DNA of 64,000 nt from IMG/VR virus record IMGVR_UViG_3300038450_000150. One strand, 5' to 3'. The stretch is from a virus. Taxonomy: Duplodnaviria > Heunggongvirae > Uroviricota > Caudoviricetes. Positions 10,336-56,047 of this stretch are shown piece by piece (positions within the stretch are counted from its first letter, which is position 1; every line of letters begins with the position of its first letter). The notes under the pieces were generated by a model. It was not told the origin of the DNA and did no database searches. It was given only the letters and a program-made list of their open reading frames with translations. A program made the translations under genes and the position numbers.

Positions 10336-11088
10336 TTACTTCTTCCTAAAGATGTTTAGTACAAGATCAACAACACAGAACGCTATCGCTATTACCGAGA
10401 GCAATGTGCTCCATATAGGTGCAGAATCACCTTGTGCGCCTGTTGCTCCAGTAAGTCCTACTGGACCTTGAACTCCCTGAATGCCTTGGATGCCTTGTGC
10501 GCCTGTTAATCCAGTCGCTCCTGTTGCGCCTGTGTCACCCTTATCACCTTTGATACCTTGAATTCCCTGATCTCCTTTTTGTCCCTGTGAACCAACTGGA
10601 CCAACTGGGCCTTGTGGACCCCTTGCTCCAGTAGCACCAGTGGAACCAGTTGCACCAGTTTCACCAGTAGAACCTGTCGCACCCGTTGCTCCAGTGGAAC
10701 CAGTCGCTCCAGTATCTCCCTTGGGACCAGGCGTTAGTTGAATGTTTCCAATTTCAGTCTGGAGATTTGTAATCTGTGTTTGTAGGCTATCAAGCCTTGT
10801 TTGAATTACAGAATCACCATCTGTACACTTCTCGATATCCTCAACTTCAGATGTTAATGCAGCTAGTTGGGACTTCAACTGTAGGAGAAGTGTTTGGTCA
10901 CAGTTGTTTGTTAGTGCATTTATCTTAACATTCAGAGCGTTAATCTGATTCTGTAGATCAGTAATTTGCCCTGGAATGCCATTGTTGTTATTATTTCCAT
11001 CATCACACGCAAGAGCGTGTGGAACAACAAGAACCGACATTAAAAATAGGCATACTATGCCTATTAATCCTCTCTTTTTGATCATCAT
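10336..11088 (-). CDS. collagen-like repeat membrane protein (250 aa)
   Basis: Signal/TM N-terminus, heptad coiled coil, about 45 G-x-y triplets ([13 protein letters not shown]...[10 protein letters not shown]), C-terminal TM helix. Confidence 0.65.
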
Positions 11089-11958: not shown

Positions 11959-12435
11959 TTAGTGGTTATGTTCTTTTCTTTGTTTATCCCATTTATCGTG
12001 TTCTTGGTAGTTAAATGTGCTTGTGCCTTTTTCTTTTAATTGTTTGATATGATCGTTCATAAGTGGAACAAGACGGTTGCCTTCTTTAATATCATATCTA
12101 AGTTCAGTGGTGATTCTTTTTAGACGTTCTTTATCTTGTTCTATTTTCTTCTGAAGCCACTTGAGATCCTCTTCTGATTTTTTAATTCTGCCTTGAACAA
12201 TTACTGGCTCAAGACTTTTACCTGTGCAATCTTGGCACACCAGTGCATCCTCATTACATTCTGGTGTTCTTATTGTGCGTTCCTCATATGGTTTGAGGAT
12301 AGTTCTCCCAACTGTATGATATCCTTTGTGGTAATCATCTTCCATAACTCTACGAAGGACAGGTGTACCACAAACATCACATAATTCTATAATCACATCT
12401 TCTGATTCCTTTATCATCTTTGTCATCTTACCCAC
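11959..12435 (-). CDS. Zn-finger / coiled-coil protein (158 aa)
   Basis: CDVCG...CQDC followed by a Lys/Glu-rich coiled coil. Confidence 0.4.
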   Translation of the reverse strand: MGKMTKMIKESEDVIIELCDVCGTPVLRRVMEDDYHKGYHTVGRTILKPYEERTIRTPECNEDALVCQDCTGKSLEPVIVQGRIKKSEEDLKWLQKKIEQDKERLKRITTELRYDIKEGNRLVPLMNDHIKQLKEKGTSTFNYQEHDKWDKQRKEHNH

Positions 12436-12737
12436 TCTCCTCTAACACCAATTTTCTTTTTAAATAATTCATAATCAATATTTAGGCATTGTGAATGAGC
12501 ATAATTTCCGTCAAATCTCATTCCAAACCCATTGACTGGTTTGTCACAGAATATACATTTGACTCCGTAAACCTTTGCCCTCTTGAACTCATCGTGTCTT
12601 GCTCTTAGCCATAAGAGCCTAGTTTCGTGATCATTATCGTGGTCACATTTAGGGCAATTGTCACCCAGCATTGGATAATATTGCGTACCACAGGCGTGAC
12701 AAATGTCTGGGTAACGCTCATCGTGAACGACTACCAT
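12423..12737 (-). CDS. Zn-finger protein (104 aa)
   Basis: CHACG...CPKCDH...CIFCD. TATA variant at 12761. Confidence 0.4.
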   Translation of the reverse strand: MVVVHDERYPDICHACGTQYYPMLGDNCPKCDHDNDHETRLLWLRARHDEFKRAKVYGVKCIFCDKPVNGFGMRFDGNYAHSQCLNIDYELFKKKIGVRGEWVR

Positions 12738-12770: not shown

Positions 12771-14681
12771 TTAGCCTAAATTAGTCCATTGCCTTGTATG
12801 GAACTCAACTTGTTTCATCTTATTCCAACTTGAGACAGGGACAAAGTATCCGACTATTCTGGTCATCCAGTCAAGTTCGTTTGAGCCACAAACTGGGCAA
12901 GTATTGTAGACACCCATCGAGTTGTGTCCTTTCTTACAGAGTGTGAATCCACGATTCAAGGCAAACTGCACGAGATCTGTGTTCTTGATTAGTCTGTCCT
13001 GGACTTTGAATCCATTGATCTCATCCATCGAGCCAAGGATATTGAGGTGCGCCATACTTCCACCAGTAGTTGTGTTCTGGAACTTGCCCTCAACCTCAAC
13101 TCTCTTACCCATAGGAATGTCATAACTTAGTGGGACAAACTGGCTGTTGTAGAACTGTTTTGTTGCTGTCTCAGGGAATTTGATTTTATCCTTTGCTGCT
13201 AGAAGTCCAGACGCACTTTCTGCTGGAACCTCTTCGATGTTGTACATTACGCCATCTTCGTGGGAGAACTGAACTGATAATTGCTTCATAAGGGATAGTA
13301 TTTTCAGACCTTGTGCCTGTCCTTCACCCTCTGTAATGGTTCCACCCATATACTCAATAGCATCTGCAAAGCCAACAAAGCCTATGGTGCTGAAGAAATT
13401 GGAATCAAGATTGAGTATTCCGTTCCTGAAGAATTCGTGGTACTTTACACGTCTTGCTCCTAGAATGTCTCTTCTGTGAACAAAGAGAAGCTGTCTAGCC
13501 TGACCAACACGATCAACTAGTAGTCTCTCGAACTCAGCCCAATTTCCCTTTGCCTCTAGTGCTATCCTTGGGAGATTGACCGTAACAACAGCGTGTGAAC
13601 CTAGAGTTAGGAAACTGCCAAAGGTGTTGTTGACCTTCATCTTCAACATATCCTCTATGTCGAGAGTTAGCTTGCAACACATAGATAATTTCTTCAAGTC
13701 TGTGTTCATATTTCTAAGAATGTTTAGGAAACAGAAGTCCTTGTTGAGTGTGAGGATCCTGTGATACTCTTCTGGATATTCCTTCTCCATTGAAGGATCA
13801 ATTACCAGAGTTGTTATCGGGAAACGATAAGGCAGATTCTGTAATTTCTTATCTGGACCAACCATACCCTTTGCAAGGAACTCTAGGAAGATCATCTGGT
13901 TCCTCATAATCTCGTCTATTAAATCTCCAATCTTGTAGTCTGAGTCTGGCCAGATATAATCTGCAAACATCGACCTCATAGTCTCTGGACTTAGGATACT
14001 GACGTTTGTGAATGGAGATTGACCTGAGAGGCGTTCCTTATCGGACACACCGTGAACTAGATTTTGCATATCGTTTAGTCTGGATTCATCTGGATAGTTG
14101 CCAACCATCTTTGTGAAGTAACTGTAGTTTACGAAGAAATCTGTGAGTGCTGTCGCTCCAGCAAAGCAATTTGCAGCAGCCTGGATTAGTCGAGCAGTTA
14201 GATTTGTGAAACTTGCTGGACGCTTTGGTGGTAGAGTTGGAACATCACTAAATTGAACTTGACCATAGAGTAAAGGAGTTGTTGAAAGCCCTATACAATA
14301 TGGGAGCTGGTAGAGAGTTGAGTTGTGGATGTAGAGTGCGCCATTGAATACATCACCGATTAACTCATCACCATTGTATTTCCTGCGGTTTGCATATCTC
14401 CTGTAGAGATAATAGCAACTAAGTTTTTCAATGGGATTGTTTACTTCGGTGATTTGATTCACAAAACTCTTCTTCTCTCCAGTATTGCCAAGATTGGCAT
14501 TGGGATTGATTGTAACAGCATCTACTGGTTGCGACCAGTAATCTCTCCTAAGTTTGAAAGGATTGATATTTCCCAAGCCATCCATTTTTATAAGGTCATA
14601 ATCAACATCTGCAAGATAGTCTGCAAATTCCTCATCAAAAGTTCCAAGTATATTTCTGAATTTCAGTTCATCACGATTCAT
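12771..14681 (-). CDS. nrdD: anaerobic ribonucleoside-triphosphate reductase (class III RNR)
   Basis: 636 aa. C-terminal Zn ribbon C...H...CPVCGS followed by the glycyl-radical motif RIVGYF. Confidence 0.85.
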   Translation of the reverse strand: MNRDELKFRNILGTFDEEFADYLADVDYDLIKMDGLGNINPFKLRRDYWSQPVDAVTINPNANLGNTGEKKSFVNQITEVNNPIEKLSCYYLYRRYANRRKYNGDELIGDVFNGALYIHNSTLYQLPYCIGLSTTPLLYGQVQFSDVPTLPPKRPASFTNLTARLIQAAANCFAGATALTDFFVNYSYFTKMVGNYPDESRLNDMQNLVHGVSDKERLSGQSPFTNVSILSPETMRSMFADYIWPDSDYKIGDLIDEIMRNQMIFLEFLAKGMVGPDKKLQNLPYRFPITTLVIDPSMEKEYPEEYHRILTLNKDFCFLNILRNMNTDLKKLSMCCKLTLDIEDMLKMKVNNTFGSFLTLGSHAVVTVNLPRIALEAKGNWAEFERLLVDRVGQARQLLFVHRRDILGARRVKYHEFFRNGILNLDSNFFSTIGFVGFADAIEYMGGTITEGEGQAQGLKILSLMKQLSVQFSHEDGVMYNIEEVPAESASGLLAAKDKIKFPETATKQFYNSQFVPLSYDIPMGKRVEVEGKFQNTTTGGSMAHLNILGSMDEINGFKVQDRLIKNTDLVQFALNRGFTLCKKGHNSMGVYNTCPVCGSNELDWMTRIVGYFVPVSSWNKMKQVEFHTRQWTNLG

Positions 14682-14804
14682 TTTTGGTCAACCAGTTTGT
14701 CTGCCGATAAGCATCGTAGCTATGGTACGAGAGCATATAAATATTATCAGGTCATTATCAAATGAAGAAAATTTATTATAAAAAAATTATGTGGGTGTTT
14801 ATAA

Positions 14805-14874
14805 TTCACCCACCTTTACTTTACTTCACTATACTAAACTCTACAAGACTTCACAACACACTACATTACTATAC
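14805..14874. repeat. G-free pentamer-periodic tract (NNNAC)x13 on the + strand, i.e. (GTNNN)n on the gene strand
   Basis: ttcac ccacc tttac tttac ttcac tatac taaac tctac aagac ttcac aacac actac attac tatac, with AC every 5 nt. Lies upstream of the nrdD leader. Confidence 0.6.
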
Positions 14875-14922
14875 TTCATTAAATTAATAACCATATATTA
14901 CATTTATAAATATTATCACCTA

Positions 14923-15390
14923 TTATATTCTTCCACCAAATTGCATACAAACAACACCGTTTGCACGTAATCCTTCTACGATTGTTGGAGAATCGTCAAA
15001 ATAAACATAAACACCTCTCTCACGAATAATCTTTAACTTTCTTTGGACAATATCATCCTGCCATTCTTTCCAAAGTCCTTTGTTTTTTAATTCTATATCT
15101 TGCCCAACTATCTCAAGTGAAAATTCTGGGAAATATTTGGCAACCCAACGTTTGGTGAGTTGAACCAATTTTTCATCCAAAAAATCCCTTGCGGTGATAA
15201 TAATTCCCTTATCTCCTTCGTGCATATATTCTTTCACGGAGAAAATTGGTTTTACTTGTCTATAAAAAAGTTCATATTCAAACTTTCTTTCATCTGGATT
15301 TGGATTCATATCAATTAAACGAAGTTTAACCGAATCTGTATCTCCAAGGCAACCGTCTAGGTCGAATCCGATAAGTTTTCCGCTATTCAA
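14923..15390 (-). CDS. HAD-superfamily phosphatase, 5'(3')-deoxyribonucleotidase-like
   Basis: N-terminal GFDLDGCLGD (HAD motif I, DxDG). 155 aa. Confidence 0.5.
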   Translation of the reverse strand: MNSGKLIGFDLDGCLGDTDSVKLRLIDMNPNPDERKFEYELFYRQVKPIFSVKEYMHEGDKGIIITARDFLDEKLVQLTKRWVAKYFPEFSLEIVGQDIELKNKGLWKEWQDDIVQRKLKIIRERGVYVYFDDSPTIVEGLRANGVVCMQFGGRI

Positions 15391-30324: not shown

Positions 30325-30573
30325 ATGGTTCCACCACCAAGAAAAAGAATCTTCTTAACAAAGAAGAGAGGCTGGTCGAAAGACCTTCCTGCATCAGAGC
30401 GCAGAAAGAGAGTGTATTCCACCACAGATCATAAAAAGACTAGACACAACCGCTACCTTGAAGCATTCAGGGCAACACAGGGTCTAGCTAATCTCAGTAA
30501 GGATCCTGACACAAAGGCAAAGGCAAAGTCTGATGCAAATTACTTCTCCAAGAAAATGGAGAAGTACCAATAA
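30325..30573 (+). CDS. very basic protein (82 aa)
   Basis: The only + strand ORF in this stretch. Lys/Arg-rich. Convergent with 30581-30961. Confidence 0.4.
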   Translation: MVPPPRKRIFLTKKRGWSKDLPASERRKRVYSTTDHKKTRHNRYLEAFRATQGLANLSKDPDTKAKAKSDANYFSKKMEKYQ

Positions 30574-30595
30574 ACTTTTTTTATTCTTGTAATAA
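30574..30595. terminator. T-tract terminator at a convergent junction
   Basis: taaactttttttattcttg between converging gene ends. Confidence 0.35.
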
Positions 30596-30961
30596 AGCGT
30601 TAGAACTTCCTAAGATTTTATCGAGTGAGTAGAGGAAGGCTAATGATGTCAGCCTAGACACACCATCTTCATCCATCGTCAAAACAGATATTATTGAAGT
30701 ATTCGAGAACTTTTTTGAACGAACATATACATTAAGATCGTCACTGCTGTCTCTTAAAAATCCATTTTCCTTTCCTATAATAAAATGACCATCTTCATAT
30801 TTAATAGTCATAAAGCCTGGAAAGGCATCTTTGATGGCTCTATCAATGTAGTCTTTTGGTTCTTCACCCTGTTTTAGGAAATAAACAACAGAACTTGGGA
30901 TACTCAAACCGTGACTACTTGAGGATGAACCGTGTGCTATTGGAACAAAAATTACAGGCAT
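30581..30961 (-). CDS. hypothetical protein (126 aa)
   Basis: ORF with poly-Ser near the N-terminus. Immediately preceded by the pentamer tract. Confidence 0.4.
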   Translation of the reverse strand: MPVIFVPIAHGSSSSSHGLSIPSSVVYFLKQGEEPKDYIDRAIKDAFPGFMTIKYEDGHFIIGKENGFLRDSSDDLNVYVRSKKFSNTSIISVLTMDEDGVSRLTSLAFLYSLDKILGSSNALLQE

Positions 30962-31045
30962 TTTACATCACTCTTTACTTTACATTACTTGACTTAACTG
31001 CACTAAACTCCAGTTCACTGCACTTTACTGCTCTACTTTACTTTA
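30961..31045. repeat. second G-poor pentamer-periodic (NNNAC)n tract
   Basis: tttac atcac ..tttac attac ttgac ttaac tgcac taaac ... ttcac tgcac tttac ... tttac. Fills the whole intergenic space from the start codon at 30961 to 10 nt before the stop of the next gene. Confidence 0.55.
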
Positions 31046-31055
31046 AAAAATGGGA

Positions 31056-32900
31056 TTAGACTGCTTTGGTAGCTGCCTCTTTCTTTCGAAGCATCTGAGC
31101 CAGCCAGACATTGAGTAGGTTGCCTTGGGCTTCTCCACCATTGCCACCTGAAACTAGGATATCAGGTGTGATAGTGATCTTGCCAGAGGCAATCTGCTCG
31201 AACACCTTTAGCATTGCAACGTTGTCCTGACCTAGGACACCCATCTGTGCAGCATATGCTTTAGCTGTACCTACACCTTCCTGTTCATTCTTGTAAGCTG
31301 TACCGTCTGCCTGAGCCTTAGTTGCATCACGAACACCAGCAGCTTCCATCCTTGCTGCATCTGCACGGTCTGCTGCAATATCGATTGACAGTTTAGCTGA
31401 GATAACGTCAGTCTGCTTGTCAGCCCTTGCCGTTTTCTCTGCTACAGCAATCCTCTGCTCCTGTGCAAGTGCTTCCTGCTGGTACTGTGCCTGTTGCTGG
31501 GCAGCTATTTCCTTCTTTGTCTGAGTTTCTAGTAGTGCCTTGTCAACATCAATGTAAGCAATTAGCAGCCCCTGAACCTCTGTGTGGTACTTCGAGAACT
31601 CTTCACGAGCCTTCTCAAGTGCCTGTTCCTGTAGTTCAGTTCGGCTGTGGACGAACTGCATTGCCTGTTTCTTGCCAGCTTCGTTACGGAAGGAGGAGTC
31701 GATCAGTGGGTGAGCAACCTGTTCAATCAGGTTCTGTACAGTACCGAACCTTGCAATCACGAAAGGTGCATTGGCTGGAGGTACACGGATGATGAGCCTG
31801 ACATCTACATCAAGCTGGAACCCATCCATTGAAGTTACACGAAGTTGGCTGAACTTGAAGAACTCTGTGATCTTCTGGCTCTGGGAAACGTCCTTTCCCT
31901 GAGCTCCAAGTACACGTGTCTCTGCTGGACCCTCAGTTGATGCCCAATCTATAGTGATAGCGGAAGTAGGTACTAACTCAGGCTTGTAGGCGATTTGGTT
32001 AAGGTTGTACTTTCCAGGTGTAACTGGCTCGGCCAGAATACCACGCTGGTTCTTGTCAGTGATTAGAAGAGACTCAACTGTCTCTGGAATTGGGGAATTG
32101 AGATCAGGTGTCTTGCTGATTTTTGGTGCTTCACCACTAGGCTGGACTTCCTTTCCAACACTGGAAATGATTACAGCAACGTAGCCTGGTGGGACAACAG
32201 CAACATCATAGAGAGTGACTTGGAATAGGTTAGTATTTATGTAGTAATCACCTGGCTGAAGTGTCTCAAGTTGTGGACCCCTGTAGCCACCAGCCTCAAT
32301 GAAGGCTTGGCTGTCTTGGAAGTGCTTGTGATCTGATGTGGGTGCTGGAGCAATTATGAAACCAGATGGCAGTGAATTGCCATCCATAGCAACAACTACA
32401 CCGACCCTCTCCTGTGGAACTTGTACTGCACCAACTGCTGTGACTTTGAATACAGCTAGGTTGATACGATAAACACCTGGGCGAAGTACACCAATCTGAG
32501 GACCCTTCTTTCCACCATTCTTGAGGAATGCCCCTGCATCTTGGTACGAATTACATTCAACCTCATCTGCAAGGATACGACCAGATGGAATGGATTGTCC
32601 GTCAATGGACTCAACTAGACCAATATTTCCCTGTGGAATCTCGGTCACTTCGACCTTCTTAATCTTCCAGATTATGGGGAAACGCCAGTAAAGTCCAGGC
32701 ATAAGGGTTTCAGCTTGAATACCGACCTCACCCTCAGTAGCAATGATTTTTCCCTGTGGTAATTTCTTGCCAAACATTTTCTTAACTAGGATACCGACCT
32801 CACCAGCTTTGATGAGAGCGAATCCTGGTAGCACGAAGAAAACTAAGCATATTAGTACGACAATGCCTAGAATCCCTAGTCCGATTAGATCTTCAAACAT
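31056..32900 (-). CDS. SPFH/flotillin-like (YqiK-type) membrane protein with internal repeats
   Basis: N-terminal TM. Duplicated about 90-aa segment (FQDSQAFIEAGGYRGPQLETLQPGDYYIN versus YQDAGAFLKNGGKKGPQIGVLRPGVYRIN). C-terminal Ala/Glu/Gln-rich coiled coil and ITITPDILVSGGNGG...LLNVWLAQML tail typical of the flotillin C-terminus. Confidence 0.65.
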   Translation of the reverse strand: MFEDLIGLGILGIVVLICLVFFVLPGFALIKAGEVGILVKKMFGKKLPQGKIIATEGEVGIQAETLMPGLYWRFPIIWKIKKVEVTEIPQGNIGLVESIDGQSIPSGRILADEVECNSYQDAGAFLKNGGKKGPQIGVLRPGVYRINLAVFKVTAVGAVQVPQERVGVVVAMDGNSLPSGFIIAPAPTSDHKHFQDSQAFIEAGGYRGPQLETLQPGDYYINTNLFQVTLYDVAVVPPGYVAVIISSVGKEVQPSGEAPKISKTPDLNSPIPETVESLLITDKNQRGILAEPVTPGKYNLNQIAYKPELVPTSAITIDWASTEGPAETRVLGAQGKDVSQSQKITEFFKFSQLRVTSMDGFQLDVDVRLIIRVPPANAPFVIARFGTVQNLIEQVAHPLIDSSFRNEAGKKQAMQFVHSRTELQEQALEKAREEFSKYHTEVQGLLIAYIDVDKALLETQTKKEIAAQQQAQYQQEALAQEQRIAVAEKTARADKQTDVISAKLSIDIAADRADAARMEAAGVRDATKAQADGTAYKNEQEGVGTAKAYAAQMGVLGQDNVAMLKVFEQIASGKITITPDILVSGGNGGEAQGNLLNVWLAQMLRKKEAATKAV

Positions 32901-51238: not shown

Positions 51239-52222
51239 TTGAGTAATCAAAGACTTACTGAGAAATATAGACCCCAAAAATGGGATGATGTAGTCGGTCA
51301 GGACAAGATAATCAAGTCCATTAAGAACACCGTTGACAGGGCTAAAATGATGAAAGGTGAGGGTATTACTCCACATTTCTTATTTGTTGGTCCTCCAGGT
51401 TGTGGTAAAACAACAGTTGCAGAGATTGTAGGTAGGGAACTTGGGTTTGAGACTATAGAGTTTAATGCCTCTGATGATAGAACACTTGTTTTTGTTAGAG
51501 AGGAAATCAAGAAACTAGCTGCATTTGCTGGTGTTCACGTAATCATTCTGGACGAGTTTGACGAAATGATCAAGCCAGCTCAGATGGCTATGAAGAGGAT
51601 TATGGAAACAACTGATTCAATTTTCATACTCTTGGCAAACCACGATTGGAAGATTGAAGATGCTATCAAGAGTCGATGTGCAAAGTTTACCTTTGAGAGA
51701 ATCAAAGATGATATTATTGAGAAGAAGATTGTATCCATAATTATGGCAGAGGGAATCAAGTTCTCACCTACAGAAGAAGTCAAACAGGGTCTGAAGGACT
51801 TGGTAAAGAATGCCGATGGTGATCTTAGGAAGGCTATAAACGACTTGGAAAGTATCACAGACGCAAGCAAATACATTACAAATGATTCCGTTGCTTTACT
51901 CCAGAGGCCAATCGGACTTGGTTTGGTTGCTCTAACTTATGCTTTACAGGGTGACTTTGATAGTGCAAAGGAGAACATTGAGAAAACATATGTTGAGGGA
52001 AAATATGATCCAAGAAAGACTATTCACGAACTTTACGAAGCTATTCCAAAACTACAGCTAGATCAGGAAATTAAAATCAGAATGTATGAGAAGTTAGCCA
52101 GAACAGATGCTGATATGAAATATGGTGGGGATCCTGTAATCCACCTGATTGGCTTCGTAGCTTTTGTTTGGCTACTACCACACCTTAGTAAGTGTCCAGT
52201 TCTAAGTACAAGTGGGGTTTAA
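51239..52222 (+). CDS. rfcS: replication factor C small subunit (clamp loader)
   Basis: RFC box II EKYRPQKWDDVVGQ, Walker A GPPGCGKTT, DEFDEM, SRC motif KSRCAKF. TTG start. Confidence 0.85.
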   Translation: MSNQRLTEKYRPQKWDDVVGQDKIIKSIKNTVDRAKMMKGEGITPHFLFVGPPGCGKTTVAEIVGRELGFETIEFNASDDRTLVFVREEIKKLAAFAGVHVIILDEFDEMIKPAQMAMKRIMETTDSIFILLANHDWKIEDAIKSRCAKFTFERIKDDIIEKKIVSIIMAEGIKFSPTEEVKQGLKDLVKNADGDLRKAINDLESITDASKYITNDSVALLQRPIGLGLVALTYALQGDFDSAKENIEKTYVEGKYDPRKTIHELYEAIPKLQLDQEIKIRMYEKLARTDADMKYGGDPVIHLIGFVAFVWLLPHLSKCPVLSTSGV

Positions 52223-52706
52223 GATGCCAACACAATCAAAGGTCATAGGTAACAATGTTGTCACTAACCCAATTGGAGAAAAGATAGAGGATAATTACAT
52301 ACATATCTATCCAGGCACTGAAGTAACAATAAGGTTGGCAAAAAGTTTTGCAGACGAACTTAGTGACCTTGGATATGTTGGTGTAGAAAGGACAGACGAT
52401 AGAACAAAGTCTGTGGATTTGCCTGTAAACATAATCCATATGCAGGATGAATTAATGATATCATTCTACAGGCACGATCTTGGTGAACCTATGCCCTGTA
52501 AGTTACATAACTTTGTAATTGACGGTATCTCAGATACAATACAGGACATACTCCGATCTAGGGCAGATGTTGTGTCAAGAATTAAATATGAGGGTGTGTC
52601 GGTAGTAGTGGGCGAACTTCCCCAAGTTATTCATATGTACTTCGATATGTTGAAGTTAGAGAAACTTGGAAGGAAGGAAGAGAAGTTAGATTCGTGGTTT
52701 GGGTGA
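52212..52706 (+). CDS. hypothetical protein (164 aa)
   Basis: ORF between the rfcS and Cas4-like genes. Confidence 0.4.
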   Translation: MGFKMPTQSKVIGNNVVTNPIGEKIEDNYIHIYPGTEVTIRLAKSFADELSDLGYVGVERTDDRTKSVDLPVNIIHMQDELMISFYRHDLGEPMPCKLHNFVIDGISDTIQDILRSRADVVSRIKYEGVSVVVGELPQVIHMYFDMLKLEKLGRKEEKLDSWFG

Positions 52707-52712
52707 TAATCC

Positions 52713-53450
52713 TTGCAAATGGGTCCAATTAGTCAGTCACAGATGTATTATGCAGAACATTGCCCACATAGTTGGTATTTCTATAGAATCAAGGCACAAC
52801 AAATCCAAGGTGATATGTCCTATGCCACAATTGGAACCGTGATTCACGAATCAATTGAGGAGTATTTCAAATCAATCAGTGAAAATCCACATAGTGGACA
52901 AATCACAGGTACATTTAAAACGATTGTTGACAAGAACTGGAGTGTTTACGAATCTTTACTCAAGGAGTACTCTGGTAGAAAAGACAAGTGTGTTAATAAC
53001 TTTGTCAACTTCGAAGTAAATAGAGCAGCTACAGCAAAGAAATACAAGCCAACTCTTATCGAACAAGATTTGAAGGCAATTATCAAGAGGATAGAGTACA
53101 GGGCAATAATAGACGCTTACTGGGAAGATGAGGGACTGATAGCAGACTGGAAAACAGGGAATAAGAATATGCTAAGTCCACAGGATTATCTTCAGGGACA
53201 AATTGAGACAATGCTCCTGAGAGAGCACGGATACAACGTTAAGAGAGTTGTCTTTGTAAGTCTCTTTTCTGGACTTGTACTTGAACTTCCAAAGGTAACA
53301 GATGAATACGTTCACGAGAAAGCAATGAAAATGATAAATTATTGGAATACAGGTATATTCCCAAAAATTAGAGGACAAGGTTGCAATATGTGTAACTGGA
53401 ATCTGAGATGTAAATTAGAAGATAGAGGGATATGTTTATGGCAACTATAG
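52713..53450 (+). CDS. Cas4/RecB-like PD-(D/E)XK exonuclease with 4-Cys cluster
   Basis: N-terminal Cys (HCPHSWYF), D...E-x-K block (IDAYWEDEGLIADWKTG), C-terminal C-x2-C-x5-C (CNMCNWNLRC). Confidence 0.6.
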   Translation: MQMGPISQSQMYYAEHCPHSWYFYRIKAQQIQGDMSYATIGTVIHESIEEYFKSISENPHSGQITGTFKTIVDKNWSVYESLLKEYSGRKDKCVNNFVNFEVNRAATAKKYKPTLIEQDLKAIIKRIEYRAIIDAYWEDEGLIADWKTGNKNMLSPQDYLQGQIETMLLREHGYNVKRVVFVSLFSGLVLELPKVTDEYVHEKAMKMINYWNTGIFPKIRGQGCNMCNWNLRCKLEDRGICLWQL

Positions 53451-53713
53451 ACGAGCCAGTTTCTCTACCAAAATCTGGTAGATGCAAACGTTGTGGCAGA
53501 CAACTATCAGATCACACTAGCATTCTTTTTGAAATGGGACCAGTCTGCCGTGCTAAAGAAGGAATGAAAATAACAAAACCTAGGGTGCATAAAGTAGATT
53601 TAACTATCAAGAAACCGAAGGTACATACATTTAAATTTAAGAAGGTAGAAGGTACTGCACCCACCTTCGATTTCGAAGATTGGTTCAGCAATAAAGAGGA
53701 GAAAGAGCAATGA
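53432..53713 (+). CDS. Zn-ribbon protein (93 aa)
   Basis: CKRCGRQ...GPVCRAK. Confidence 0.35.
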   Translation: MFMATIDEPVSLPKSGRCKRCGRQLSDHTSILFEMGPVCRAKEGMKITKPRVHKVDLTIKKPKVHTFKFKKVEGTAPTFDFEDWFSNKEEKEQ

Positions 53714-54606
53714 GATGGGATAAAATAGCACCAAAGACAACTTCCGAGTTGCTAGGAAATCCCAAGGCTCACGAGTCATTGATGAGATACGTTAAGGAAC
53801 GTACTGCTGTATGTTTAGTCGGTGATCCAGGCTCAGGAAAGACTACCGCAGCATATGTGGTGGCTCGTGAGTTAGGTTTGAATGTGATGGAGCTCAATGC
53901 TTCTGACGAGAGAACAAAGGAATCTTCCCTTCCAGAGTTTGTTGAACTCTGCCAACAAGTACCAATGACAGGAGAAGGACTTCTTTTCCTGTTAGATGAG
54001 GTAGATGGTATGGGTTCGGTTGATGGTAAGGGAGCCTGGGAGTATGTCAAAGATATTTTGAAGTACTCCAAACACGCTGTTGTGTTGACTTGTAATGATG
54101 ATTATAAAATTCCTGCTACAGTGAAAGGTTTACTTGTAACTGTTAAGTTGATAAAACCCAATGTAAAAACTGTTGAAAAATATGCTGCTAAAATTGCAAA
54201 GGAAAATTTGCGTACAACTGCACCTACAACTGATGAATTGACATCTGACTTTAGAAATGCTATTAATGTTGCACTATTTGGTGGAGAACCCTACAAAGAA
54301 CAGAATACATACACATTGACACACAAGTTCTTCGTTGAAGGGGATGTGGAGAGGATTGATGATGTTCCTCTACCTTTCCTCTTTGACAATGCCCCAAACT
54401 ATCTAAAGGGGTGGGACTTGTTCCAGTTTTACAGAGTACTCAGAATATCAGCTATTAGCAATCAAACTGGAGCACTGTCCTTATCCCCCAGAGGTTCTGG
54501 GACATATGCCAGATTCCCTGGCTATATGAGAATGCGATCTAGTCGCAAGAAGGGTGAGGATGATGTCGAATCAACAACAACAGACGAAAACGGGCAGAAG
54601 AGTTGA
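53710..54606 (+). CDS. rfcL: RFC large-subunit-like AAA+ clamp-loader protein
   Basis: Walker A GDPGSGKTT. LNASDERT box. Walker B LLDEVDGM. 298 aa. Confidence 0.6.
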   Translation: MRWDKIAPKTTSELLGNPKAHESLMRYVKERTAVCLVGDPGSGKTTAAYVVARELGLNVMELNASDERTKESSLPEFVELCQQVPMTGEGLLFLLDEVDGMGSVDGKGAWEYVKDILKYSKHAVVLTCNDDYKIPATVKGLLVTVKLIKPNVKTVEKYAAKIAKENLRTTAPTTDELTSDFRNAINVALFGGEPYKEQNTYTLTHKFFVEGDVERIDDVPLPFLFDNAPNYLKGWDLFQFYRVLRISAISNQTGALSLSPRGSGTYARFPGYMRMRSSRKKGEDDVESTTTDENGQKS

Positions 54607-56047
54607 ACTAACTTCTTCTGGTTTGGTTAGAGAACTAACCGAGTTTATGCTAGATGGGGTAAACACCCATCCAGATTGGGTAGAAAGTTTGGCAGTAGCT
54701 TTAGTTGGTATGTTGGCTGGAAAGAACAGGTATATGGTCAACAACCTTGGAAAGGTCAGGGCTAATCTATTCTTCATTATAGTTGGGGCTAGTGGACTCA
54801 GTATGAAGTCTGTGCCACTTATGAAGGTGGCTAGACCTATTCTGAAGAAACTTACTAAGGCTGTAAATGATGACGTACTGAAAGATGCTGGAATCAAGGA
54901 AGAGGAATTCCTAGCACGTAAGATGGCCAACAACAAGGCAGATGCTAAGGAGAGAGGAAAGGACGAGTGGAAAAAGGAGAAGGCTTGGCTTGATGAGTTG
55001 GAGAAAAGTATGGTTGATTTTGTCACACCTACCAGCTTCACGTCAGAACTTCTCACAACATTCCTGAGCAAGCACCCACAGGGTTTAATCTGTGGTGACG
55101 AGTACACCAAGATGTTCAAGGGAACTTTGAAGAAAGATTACCTTACAGACAATATGGAAGATCTCAGTCGAATGTATGACTGTGATATGGAGAAGAAGGG
55201 TACTCAGACTAGGGGAATCGAGAACCCAGAGGATGCCTATGTTAGCTTTACTTCCGCTACTACATATTATCTTCTGACAATAATGACCGATGACTTTTTC
55301 CTACAGGGAACAGGTAATCGGATACTCTGGATTCTTGATGAGGAACTTTATCCTATGGATATCGAGAAGGAAGAGGGTAAGTTCTTCTGGGACTTGAACA
55401 GGGAAACAGAGTTCAACAACAAGATGGATGAACTGGTAATCAAGCTAATGAATGTTAGGTATCTCCCAGAAGGAATCATAATGCCTAACTATGCTGCTGG
55501 AATCATGCTGGATAGATATAGGATAGAGATGTATAATGAGGCTGTAAAGAAGTTCAATGAGGATATTCTGAATAAGGATGCTAACCTAATTTCCAGACTT
55601 GCACAGAACTCTATGAAGTTGGCTTTGGCACATGCTATTGGTAGATATGCTGTAGATGACCGTGGAACATATCACGATGTTACACAACTTGAGATTGTAG
55701 AAGAGGATGCTAAATGGGCAATTGAAAAGACCAGAAAACACTATGAATACTATAAGAGAATGTGGGAAGTTGCTTCAACAATTAAGATTGGTACTATGAA
55801 GAATTACAAGGCTGACCAAGAACGTGTACTATTCATAATGGATAAGATAGAGAGTCAGGGAAAGCATATGACAACAGCCAATCTCAGAAAACACACTGGT
55901 TGGGATAAGGCAGAATGTCAGAAGTTGCTGGATACTATGGTTTCGAATGGTCAGTTAAAGTACCTTGAAGGACTGTCTGGTATTCATAAATATGGATATT
56001 ATACACACAGTACTGAAGAGGATCCTCAAGATCAAAAGACTGTGTGA
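54554..56047 (+). CDS. hypothetical protein (497 aa) with degenerate P-loop-like and DE motifs
   Basis: IVGASGLSMKS and LICGDEY. No firm family assignment. Confidence 0.45.
   Translation: MRMMSNQQQQTKTGRRVELTSSGLVRELTEFMLDGVNTHPDWVESLAVALVGMLAGKNRYMVNNLGKVRANLFFIIVGASGLSMKSVPLMKVARPILKKLTKAVNDDVLKDAGIKEEEFLARKMANNKADAKERGKDEWKKEKAWLDELEKSMVDFVTPTSFTSELLTTFLSKHPQGLICGDEYTKMFKGTLKKDYLTDNMEDLSRMYDCDMEKKGTQTRGIENPEDAYVSFTSATTYYLLTIMTDDFFLQGTGNRILWILDEELYPMDIEKEEGKFFWDLNRETEFNNKMDELVIKLMNVRYLPEGIIMPNYAAGIMLDRYRIEMYNEAVKKFNEDILNKDANLISRLAQNSMKLALAHAIGRYAVDDRGTYHDVTQLEIVEEDAKWAIEKTRKHYEYYKRMWEVASTIKIGTMKNYKADQERVLFIMDKIESQGKHMTTANLRKHTGWDKAECQKLLDTMVSNGQLKYLEGLSGIHKYGYYTHSTEEDPQDQKTV

Follow-up and report, generated by a model that had tools for sequence, protein, structure and literature searches.

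Two pentamer arrays on the minus strand

The subject of this analysis is a periodic element, termed tract 1, in a 64,000-nt stretch of viral DNA (IMG/VR record IMGVR_UViG_3300038450_000150; the whole stretch is called the window below), together with a second element of the same design, termed tract 2. Tract 1 lies between the gene for an SPFH/Band-7 (‘flotillin’) protein and a gene for a 126-aa protein. A first-pass annotation had described it as a G-poor tract with AC every 5 nt that fills the intergenic region and abuts a start codon. Its location and its filling of the spacer are borne out by the sequence, as the tract occupies 30962-31045 of the 94 nt that separate the SPFH stop (31056) from the ATG (30961), all on the minus strand. 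The periodicity also holds, and on the gene-sense minus strand it reads as GT every 5 nt (GU in the putative RNA). The tract does run into the Shine-Dalgarno (SD) and ATG region, but its final 13 nt (AGAGTGATGTAAA) are not repeat. Likewise, the plus strand has only 5 G in 85 nt, but the strand that matters is the minus strand, a C-poor sense strand. The features are arranged as follows:

31056-32900, minus strand: SPFH/Band-7 (‘flotillin’) gene, upstream of tract 1
31035-31050, minus strand: 5′ edge of tract 1; the SPFH stop is followed by T6 and two out-of-register units, AAAGT AAAGT
30975-31034, minus strand: candidate guide array of tract 1; 12 pentamers, AGAGC and then 11 WGTNN units including one off-consensus ACTGG
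30962-30974, minus strand: SD-like leader AGAGTGATGTAAA; GTGAT (30971-30967) and a spacer before the ATG at 30961, outside the repeat array
30581-30961, minus strand: 126-aa gene adjoining tract 1; its homologue in the related locus L130 directly follows the SPFH gene

Read 5′ to 3′ on the minus strand, tract 1 begins with TTTTTT AAAGT AAAGT AGAGC, continues with AGTAA AGTGC AGTGA ACTGG AGTTT AGTGC AGTTA AGTCA AGTAA TGTAA AGTAA, and ends with AGAGTGATGTAAA ATG. There is a single 3-nt register slip, after the first two units (AAAGT AAAGT), and the NN positions spell GC AA GC GA GG TT GC TA CA AA AA AA. At the 5′ edge lies a one-mismatch TATA, TTTTTAAA (31049-31042, minus strand), with TAATCC before it, as in the viral promoter consensus ccacaataTTTATAAA. 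Used as a promoter, TTTTTAAA would place the transcription start site (TSS) near 31019, within the array, and the T6 could act as an archaeal oligo-T terminator of the SPFH gene. Read-through from the SPFH gene into the 126-aa gene is equally possible, because in L130 the same two genes lie 46 nt apart without a promoter.

ccacaataTTTATAAA recurs about 35 times on the minus strand, in front of genes and tRNAs, and the tRNA 5′ ends lie 22-28 nt past the end of the TATA; transcription is therefore archaeal in type. The consensus is very strong and uniform, (t)aatccacaataTTTATAAA(c/t)acaca, at these ~35 minus-strand sites (e.g. 2580, 4579, 6921, 11949, 34550 and 43700) and stands before every one of the tRNA genes. 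As TTTATAAA is a palindrome, plus-strand scores arise as well.

Tract 2 is the cleaner array, with 12 of 12 consecutive (A/T)GTNN units at 14816-14875, and it is embedded in a cassette with these parts:

14903-14910, minus strand: canonical viral TATA gataataTTTATAAA, one of the ~35 such promoters; predicted TSS at ~14880
14816-14880, minus strand: candidate guide array of tract 2; AATGA and 12 WGTNN units
14780-14815, minus strand: 3′ tail; AG, a 7-bp hairpin (14813-14807 pairs with 14797-14791) and U7 (14786-14780)

The NN code of tract 2 is GA AT AA AG GT GA CT AG TT AT GA AA AA. Its predicted TSS coincides with the first base of the array, the array is followed by the hairpin and U7, and the downstream nrdD gene has its own TATA at 14741-14734, so that tract 2 looks like an independent gene for a small RNA. 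With a loop of 9 nt and a T-run that begins 4 nt past the stem, the tract 2 hairpin was not called by a scanner for bacterial-type terminators. Alignment with a relative (see below) shows that it formerly served the upstream HAD-like gene as terminator. A third cassette was found in a related viral locus, L131, where a TATA is followed by GCTGT AGTAT AGTTT AGTAA AGTAT AGTGA AGTGA AGTGT AGTCC AGTGC AGTAA AG, a hairpin (GTAGGG/CCCTAC) and U5. As predicted from TATA to U-run, the products of tract 2 and of the L131 cassette would be ~100 nt each; their tails are unlike in sequence.

Both arrays of the window thus consist of 12-13 pentamers of the form (A/U)GU-NN, in which GU is almost invariant and NN is free. 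Tandem Repeats Finder reported period-5 arrays at these two places only. When both strands were scanned for (W)GT pentamers in 12 slots, tract 1 scored 10 and tract 2 scored 12, the rest of the window scored at most 5, and 30 dinucleotide shuffles reached a maximum of 7. A scan with a 6-of-7 threshold returned the same two places only, with 0-1 runs in each of 20 shuffles. The relatedness of the two tracts, which the first-pass annotation had based on common words, is upheld by the common WGTNN design. As for the words, CTTTACTTTAC is confined to the tracts (six occurrences within one mismatch, all inside them, with 1.65 expected), but ACTAAACTC alone is not significant.

Among the 33 repeats of the three cassettes, position 1 is A in 28 and T in 5, position 2 is G in 32 and position 3 is T in all 33. 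Positions 4-5 carry only 0.27-0.29 bits, with 12 distinct NN, and variation is restricted to these two positions and, in part, position 1. The periods are 5 and 10 only, whereas clustered regularly interspaced short palindromic repeat (CRISPR) or mini-CRISPR arrays have direct repeats of ~24-48 nt with unique spacers. An Rfam search of the window returned tRNAs and nothing else.

Could such arrays be decayed pentanucleotide microsatellites, or owe their pattern to base composition or to a role of the DNA itself (as bent DNA, a site for a protein array or a promoter element), without RNA function? Plain (AGTAA)n types are indeed common in viral and cellular contigs and dominated three pattern scans, and the cassettes are polymorphic for insertion and deletion. 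However, a plain microsatellite would have near-identical units whose differences are spread evenly over the five positions, and neutral decay would not hold G and T at 32-33 of 33 beside near-random positions 4-5. Furthermore, both arrays share the polarity of transcription, tract 2 is framed exactly by the TATA-predicted TSS and by the hairpin with its U-run, and the code matches described below are significant. We regard this explanation as hardly credible.

A dinucleotide code and its matches in related viruses

Guide RNAs built of pentamers are known from VIPR, a newly reported form of RNA-guided DNA recognition that has been proposed as a forerunner of CRISPR effectors and is known mostly from bacterial phages with clustered vipr, vap and vrRNA loci (bioRxiv 10.64898/2026.04.26.720920, 10.64898/2026.04.26.720927). 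A RAMP-like protein of ~20 kDa, Vipr, polymerises on a ~100-nt vrRNA of 9-16 pentamers; by cryo-electron microscopy, each repeat is occupied by a single protomer, whose pockets hold G2 and Y3. Vipr buries the conserved triplet, which is GGY or one of the variants NNNGG, YNNNG and NNNNG. The variable NN pair with DNA, and every third target base, usually a codon wobble position, is skipped. Competing phages and satellites are the targets, and some satellites have vrRNAs of their own (all from the same two preprints). The arrays of the window, with 12-13 repeats each and a consensus of U-NN-(A/U)-G, belong to the YNNNG class.

Positions 4-5 of the pentamers were read as a code and searched as (NNx)n on both strands of the window and of related viral loci (~0.26-0.3 Mb). 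As controls, the order of the dinucleotides was permuted 1000 times, and skips of 0, 2 and 3 nt were compared with a skip of 1 nt. The best match of tract 2 (23/26) falls in the HAD-like gene of L131, in frame 0, and none of the 1000 permutations reached this score (maximum 22). The L131 cassette has its best match (20/22; 0/1000 permutations) in the nrdD genes of this window and of locus L133. Tract 1, read as 12 units, matches best (20/24; 5/1000 permutations) at the same SPFH site in L130 and L128, in frame 0; these two sites differ from each other at wobble bases, yet both match tract 1. Across ~0.3 Mb, the top three matches of the tract 1 code are this one SPFH site in three viruses, all in frame.

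The sites concerned are the following:

13218-13250, minus strand: nrdD site matched by the L131 cassette (VMYNIEEVPAE), in frame, 20/22
15304-15342, minus strand: this virus's own copy of the tract 2 site, DTDSVKLRLIDMN, in the HAD-like gene 14923-15390; 19/26
31281-31316, minus strand: this virus's own copy of the tract 1 site, AQADGTAYKNEQ, in the SPFH gene; 18/24
GACACTAATAGTGTTGAACTTAGGCTAATCGATATGAAT: sibling site predicted for tract 2

All best matches lie on the coding strand in frame 0, so that every skip falls on a wobble base. With a skip of 0 or 2 nt only background was seen, and a skip of 3 nt found nothing but the tract itself. Since the putative guides have the same sense as the mRNA they cannot be antisense RNAs, and DNA is the plausible target.

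In each case the carrier's own allele scores lower than the sibling allele (18/22 for the L131 cassette; see the list for the tracts). At the two codons where the tract 1 guide fits the relatives, this virus's SPFH protein has Q against K in 78 of 103 homologues, and K where only 3 of 103 have K; at the discordant codon, the NrdD of the L131-cassette carrier has L against I in 32 of 38 homologues. In every genome the cassette directly follows, on the 3′ side, the resident copy of the gene that it matches, and this copy has further mismatches at guide-contact codons, with residues that are uncommon there among homologues. A code that matches competing elements with a 1-nt skip on wobble bases, and matches its carrier less well, is what VIPR guides display. 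Targeting appears to be reciprocal, with the lineage of the window directed at the HAD-like and SPFH genes of a second lineage that is itself directed at the nrdD of the first. Loci L129 and L131 come from the same metagenome and may represent one such sibling lineage, matched by the HAD-like and SPFH guides of this virus and carrying a guide that matches this virus's nrdD.

These matches also bear on a regulatory alternative. In Bacillus, binding sites for the TRAP protein comprise ~11 (G/U)AG triplets ~5 nt apart, each bound by one subunit, and may overlap a start codon or precede a terminator hairpin. The tracts resemble such sites in repeat number, in ~5-nt spacing and in their start-codon or terminator context. 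If a TRAP-like protein, or some other RNA-binding multimer, placed one subunit on every 5 nt, tract 1 could be an operator that controls translation of the 126-aa gene, and tract 2 would then be a decoy small RNA, with no DNA targeting involved. The strict 5-nt period over ~12 repeats, the ending of tract 1 at the SD/ATG region and the stand-alone, small RNA-like form of tract 2 would suit this explanation. Nevertheless, it leaves unexplained why the NN positions spell in-frame sibling coding sequence under one skip rule. TRAP sites have spacers of 2-3 nt that carry no information, whereas the spacers here are fixed at 2 nt and carry the code, and the triplet is WGU, with G-U conserved, rather than (G/U)AG. 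The same array type also lies beside Vipr genes in other viruses (see below), and the TrpBP family is absent from the 25 listed of the 58 Pfam families found for window open reading frames (ORFs). We consider such an operator very improbable, although repression of the downstream gene could be a by-product of Vipr binding to tract 1.

A TRAP-like ring-protein operator had been an early reading, and it was dropped after the NN code test succeeded. The same test led us to abandon a C-less unstructured leader or CTP-sensing attenuator upstream of nrdD (a gene with its own TATA, as noted above), an R-loop origin, a Rho rut site on the plus strand (the host being archaeal), and bent DNA or histone positioning.

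Probable VIPR-type guides and the search for a protein partner

The explanation that best fits the data, to which we give a probability of about three in four, is that both tracts are VIPR-type guide RNA (vrRNA) arrays of an AGU/YNNNG variant in a large archaeal virus. The element is genuine and looks functional, as the first-pass annotation had argued. Tract 1 is not primarily a promoter or spacer feature; its anatomy and target code are those expected of a VIPR-type guide RNA. The likeness extends from the predicted ~100-nt RNAs, with 9-16 pentamers, a conserved triplet and hypervariable NN, to the structured 3′ end predicted for tract 2 and the L131 cassette, to carriage by viruses, archaeal ones included, and to a code that would read DNA with a 1-nt skip on wobble bases in competing viruses and matches its own genome less well. 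AGU and UGU units also occur within described vrRNAs: in phage SUSP1 (NC_028808) four vrRNAs were located beside agp039, with occasional AGT and TGT units among the GGT units.

Other viruses carry arrays like those of the window. IMG/VR was searched blindly for ten consecutive WGTNN units, and apart from many microsatellites the search yielded ~34 non-trivial arrays with diverse NN in ~29 loci. In 19 of 29 non-trivial loci the ORF adjacent to the array encodes a Vipr homologue (phmmer with SUSP1 Vipr, E = 4e-31 to 3e-3; profile, E = 1e-40 to 1e-75), and the same holds for locus L142. All seven Vipr homologues tested (7/7) belong to phrog_4652, and one has a weak match to Pfam RAMPs. Because Vipr homologues adjoin them so often, window-type arrays are vrRNAs in these other viruses. 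More copies therefore exist than the two seen at first pass, namely the L131 cassette and the arrays beside Vipr genes on many viral contigs.

Three narrower scans gave less. In IMG/VR, arrays ending in AGTAAAGG were found at five loci, including L142 with a Vipr gene beside the array, and none of the five is of this virus family. In genome_contigs, (WGTNN)8WGT gave at least 120 matches; among those listed almost all were microsatellites, with no Vipr nearby. In metagenome_contigs, a search for TTTATAAA followed by a gap and eight repeats returned 94 loci, of which seven were non-trivial and did not include this virus.

Some of these loci are more elaborate. In L009, L016, L033, L039, L049, L068, L098 and L107 (metagenome 3300045988), and also in L080, L021, L101 and L142, several TGT- or AGT-type arrays stand beside Vipr homologues. 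Conserved hairpins or tRNA-like T-arm/acceptor minihelices separate these arrays, which are probably the multi-guide or ribozyme-interspersed arrays of the preprint. At 7465-7596 of L020 (IMG/VR 3300029551_000174, a 130-kb contig), a strong terminator hairpin comes immediately after 21 NGTNN units in the AGTAA/AGTGC style. Promoter boxes on this contig are of a Bacteroidota-like TAnnTTTG type, the 13.6-kb locus has no Vipr homologue, and this array may be another orphan guide.

Vipr itself was sought in ~73 kb of the 197-kb genome to which the window belongs (see below), using phmmer, two profile hidden Markov models with filters off, hhalign on all window ORFs of 110-330 aa, and regular expressions for the G-loop motif. 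These searches detected no vipr gene, whether in the window (best E = 0.87), in the 8.8 kb past its left end (L143, which has no array either) or in ~100 kb of related loci including L128, L131, L134, L359 and L360. The hhalign probabilities were at most 3%, and the G-loop motif was absent from the sequence searched. A profile search of a database of 5.8 billion proteins gave 1730 Vipr homologues, and none of the 120 listed lies on the 197-kb contig. Pfam searches with 54 window ORFs gave no RAMP among 25 listed of 58 families.

Several observations weigh against a VIPR-type interpretation. VIPR guides are encoded beside a vipr gene, usually accompanied by a vap gene, and no vipr gene was detected in ~73 kb of this genome. 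Folding revealed no 3′ hairpin or terminator after tract 1, whose code match is also the weakest of the three (20/24, 83%). The exact full-length target patterns of tracts 1 and 2 had 0 matches in IMG/VR, and the self-match of the L131 cassette to its own nrdD (82%) lies just above the 80% cut-off of the preprint. Finally, the VIPR mechanism itself is described in two preprints that are not peer-reviewed. As the defining protein partner was sought and not found, we class the tracts as VIPR-like orphan guides rather than as a proven complete system.

The arrays also differ from described VIPR loci. Their consensus is (A/U)GU rather than GGY, and they are single and ~16 kb apart instead of clustered at a vipr/vap operon. 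Their 3′ tails, where present, are plain terminator hairpins that vary between cassettes and not a conserved pseudoknot. Single dispersed cassettes, the lack of a detected adjacent effector gene and a position directly 3′ of the matched gene, in the partly mismatched version that the carrier itself has, all go beyond the preprint text.

Some of these points would also be expected if tract 1 were a fossil or disabled guide, derived from a vrRNA but without tail and effector by now, and left with no role other than that of a 5′ leader or intercistronic spacer for the 126-aa gene, while tract 2 may still be active. The missing hairpin, the off-consensus unit, the register slip, the weaker target match and the failure to find Vipr could all be read as decay. 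Set against this, GU is retained in 10 of 11 core repeats and tract 1 is identical in contigs from at least seven samples. Decay can be slight at most, since the three best matches of its code fall in frame on the same SPFH site. We judge a fossil guide to be unlikely, though less so than the operator considered above.

Cassette turnover, possible role and carrier genome

The first-pass annotation expected a functional tract to be conserved in related genomes. Positional conservation is not observed, whereas the cassette design does recur, as the L131 cassette illustrates. In L130 (SPFH 85% identical) the 46-nt spacer between the SPFH gene and the 126-aa homologue keeps AGTGATG..AAATG and has no pentamers, and in L128 (83%) gene order downstream of SPFH differs and the orthologous spacer is without the tract; tract 1 is therefore an insertion. 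L131 and L132 (NrdD 86% identical) have no array upstream of nrdD, and the third cassette lies immediately downstream of that gene, as part of a ~160-nt insertion in the pairwise alignment of L131. Conversely, the window has a 123-nt insertion relative to L131 between the stop codon of the HAD-like gene and the old terminator hairpin, and the last 15 nt of the HAD-like gene are duplicated on both sides of the inserted tract 2 cassette. This duplication resembles a target-site duplication or a recombination scar.

The cassettes keep their design and not their position. A lack of positional conservation should be expected of a fast-turnover guide cassette, although a naive conservation test would count it against function. 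More distant NrdD relatives (L134, L359 and L360) have neither arrays nor Vipr near nrdD. When window 14682-14922 was compared with L131 494-635, the L131 terminator hairpin was seen to overlap the final codons of the HAD-like gene (GGT GGG CGA ATA TAA ACACCCAC).

If the tracts are vrRNAs, each (A/U)GU-NN pentamer would be bound by one RAMP-like Vipr protomer, with the conserved G and U buried and the two variable bases presented. The NN string would then read double-stranded DNA with one base skipped per repeat, so that codon positions 1 and 2 are read and the wobble base is ignored. Tract 2 would spell the sibling HAD-like site and tract 1 the sibling SPFH site, and the sibling cassette would spell this virus's nrdD. 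The likely outcome is interference between closely related, co-occurring viruses, either by silencing or, with a nuclease partner, by cutting. Guide and resistant allele would be inherited together, as the cassette lies immediately 3′ of its own mismatched copy. Tract 1 might be processed from an SPFH-126-aa transcript, be started at the weak TATA in its 5′ edge, or be a decaying guide.

The effector may come in trans, encoded by the host, by a co-infecting virus or by another part of the 197-kb genome. This is plausible because some satellites carry vrRNAs of their own and because archaeal viruses carry mini-CRISPR arrays without effector genes, aimed at close relatives, which serve interviral conflict or superinfection exclusion (Medvedeva et al., 2019, PMC6858448; for Bathyarchaeia viruses, PMC10541130). 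The tracts share with these arrays the viral origin of guides without effector genes and the predicted targeting of closely related viruses; they differ in that CRISPR repeats and spacers are absent, the pentamer code is non-contiguous and nothing points to acquisition of spacers. TIGR-Tas is also phage-borne, a compact RNA-guided DNA-targeting system with unusual guide arrays (PMC12045711), but it has a different repeat/spacer architecture and protein family and no pentamer code.

More tentatively, dispersed vrRNA cassettes without an adjacent vipr gene might be RNA-guided marker-exclusion or homing elements, each fixed at the 3′ end of a conserved gene, linked to an escape allele of that gene and attacking the ancestral allele in siblings; we hold this to be possible, though doubtful. 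In T-even phages, free-standing homing endonuclease genes lie beside conserved genes (e.g. nrd) and act on the sibling allele, while their own linked allele is resistant. The cassettes would be alike in being selfish elements beside a conserved gene, with the sibling allele hit and their own allele resistant. They would be unlike in that specificity is RNA-encoded, and for them cleavage and copying into the target genome are conjectural. If a nuclease partner exists, recombinational repair could copy cassette and escape allele into the victim, which would account for the clean insertions that close relatives have at the ends of different genes. Several NrdD homologues of this viral clade (among P0156, P0158, P0162, P0171, P0174, P0185 and P0186) contain intein or homing-endonuclease domains (PF14528, PF14890), so that nrdD is a recurrent target of selfish elements in these viruses, as of the L131 guide.

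What the tracts would add to VIPR is an apparent case in an archaeal virus with an AGU repeat variant, guides in the form of scattered promoter-to-terminator cassettes far from any detectable effector gene, and a recurring arrangement of guide and linked escape allele with predicted reciprocal targeting of siblings. Guide-only cassettes would, if this is true, be mobile weapons in virus-virus conflict, akin to virus-borne mini-CRISPR arrays, and would offer a handle on the origin and spread of non-contiguous guides. A scan for 5-nt GU periodicity combined with the (NNx)n target test finds such guides without knowledge of the protein.

The carrier is an archaeal virus or virus-like replicon of large size (~197 kb). 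In the window, which has a G+C content of 39%, almost every gene lies on the same strand and there are seven genes for tRNAs; it encodes a family-B DNA polymerase (24% identical to those of haloarchaeal tailed viruses), helicases, NrdD, RFC-like AAA proteins, Thg1 and UDG. No cultured relative is known, and neither megablast against phage records nor IMG/VR searches with the 126-aa protein and the polymerase found close relatives. A peat metagenome contig of 197,240 bp (GCA_017886315.1, JAFMOA010002524.1) encodes a protein 100% identical to the SPFH protein of the window, which is also 57-75% identical to proteins annotated as Bathyarchaeota, Methanoregula, Methanospirillum and Methanocella. 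On the 197,240-bp record the SPFH gene maps to ~181.9 kb and a 117-aa gene to ~15.8 kb, the two mappings being offset by ~240 bp. Because the window spans the ends of this contig, the genome is circular or circularly permuted.

Regarding the neighbours of tract 1, the 126-aa protein has no match in Pfam or PHROG, and a single-sequence AlphaFold model of it (pLDDT 46.6) was unusable for structure search. A lone 82-aa ORF at 30325-30573 on the plus strand runs convergently to the 126-aa gene; it is conserved in L128 and L129, where it is annotated as a gene beside SPFH. At 2757-3040 of L131 lies a homologue of the 104-aa zinc-ribbon gene of the window (12423-12737) with an in-frame TAG close to the beginning, for which a pseudogene, an error in sequencing or recoding of the codon may account. 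Long G-x-y repeats characterise a collagen-like protein (10336-11088, minus strand; Pfam Collagen; 27-nt tandem repeats at 10628-10714) that is kept in L131. The only sizeable block of plus-strand genes in the window, at 51239-56047, probably includes RFC-like AAA+ clamp-loader subunits (Pfam AAA, RuvB_N, Rad17 and Rep_fac_C, families not tied to single ORFs).

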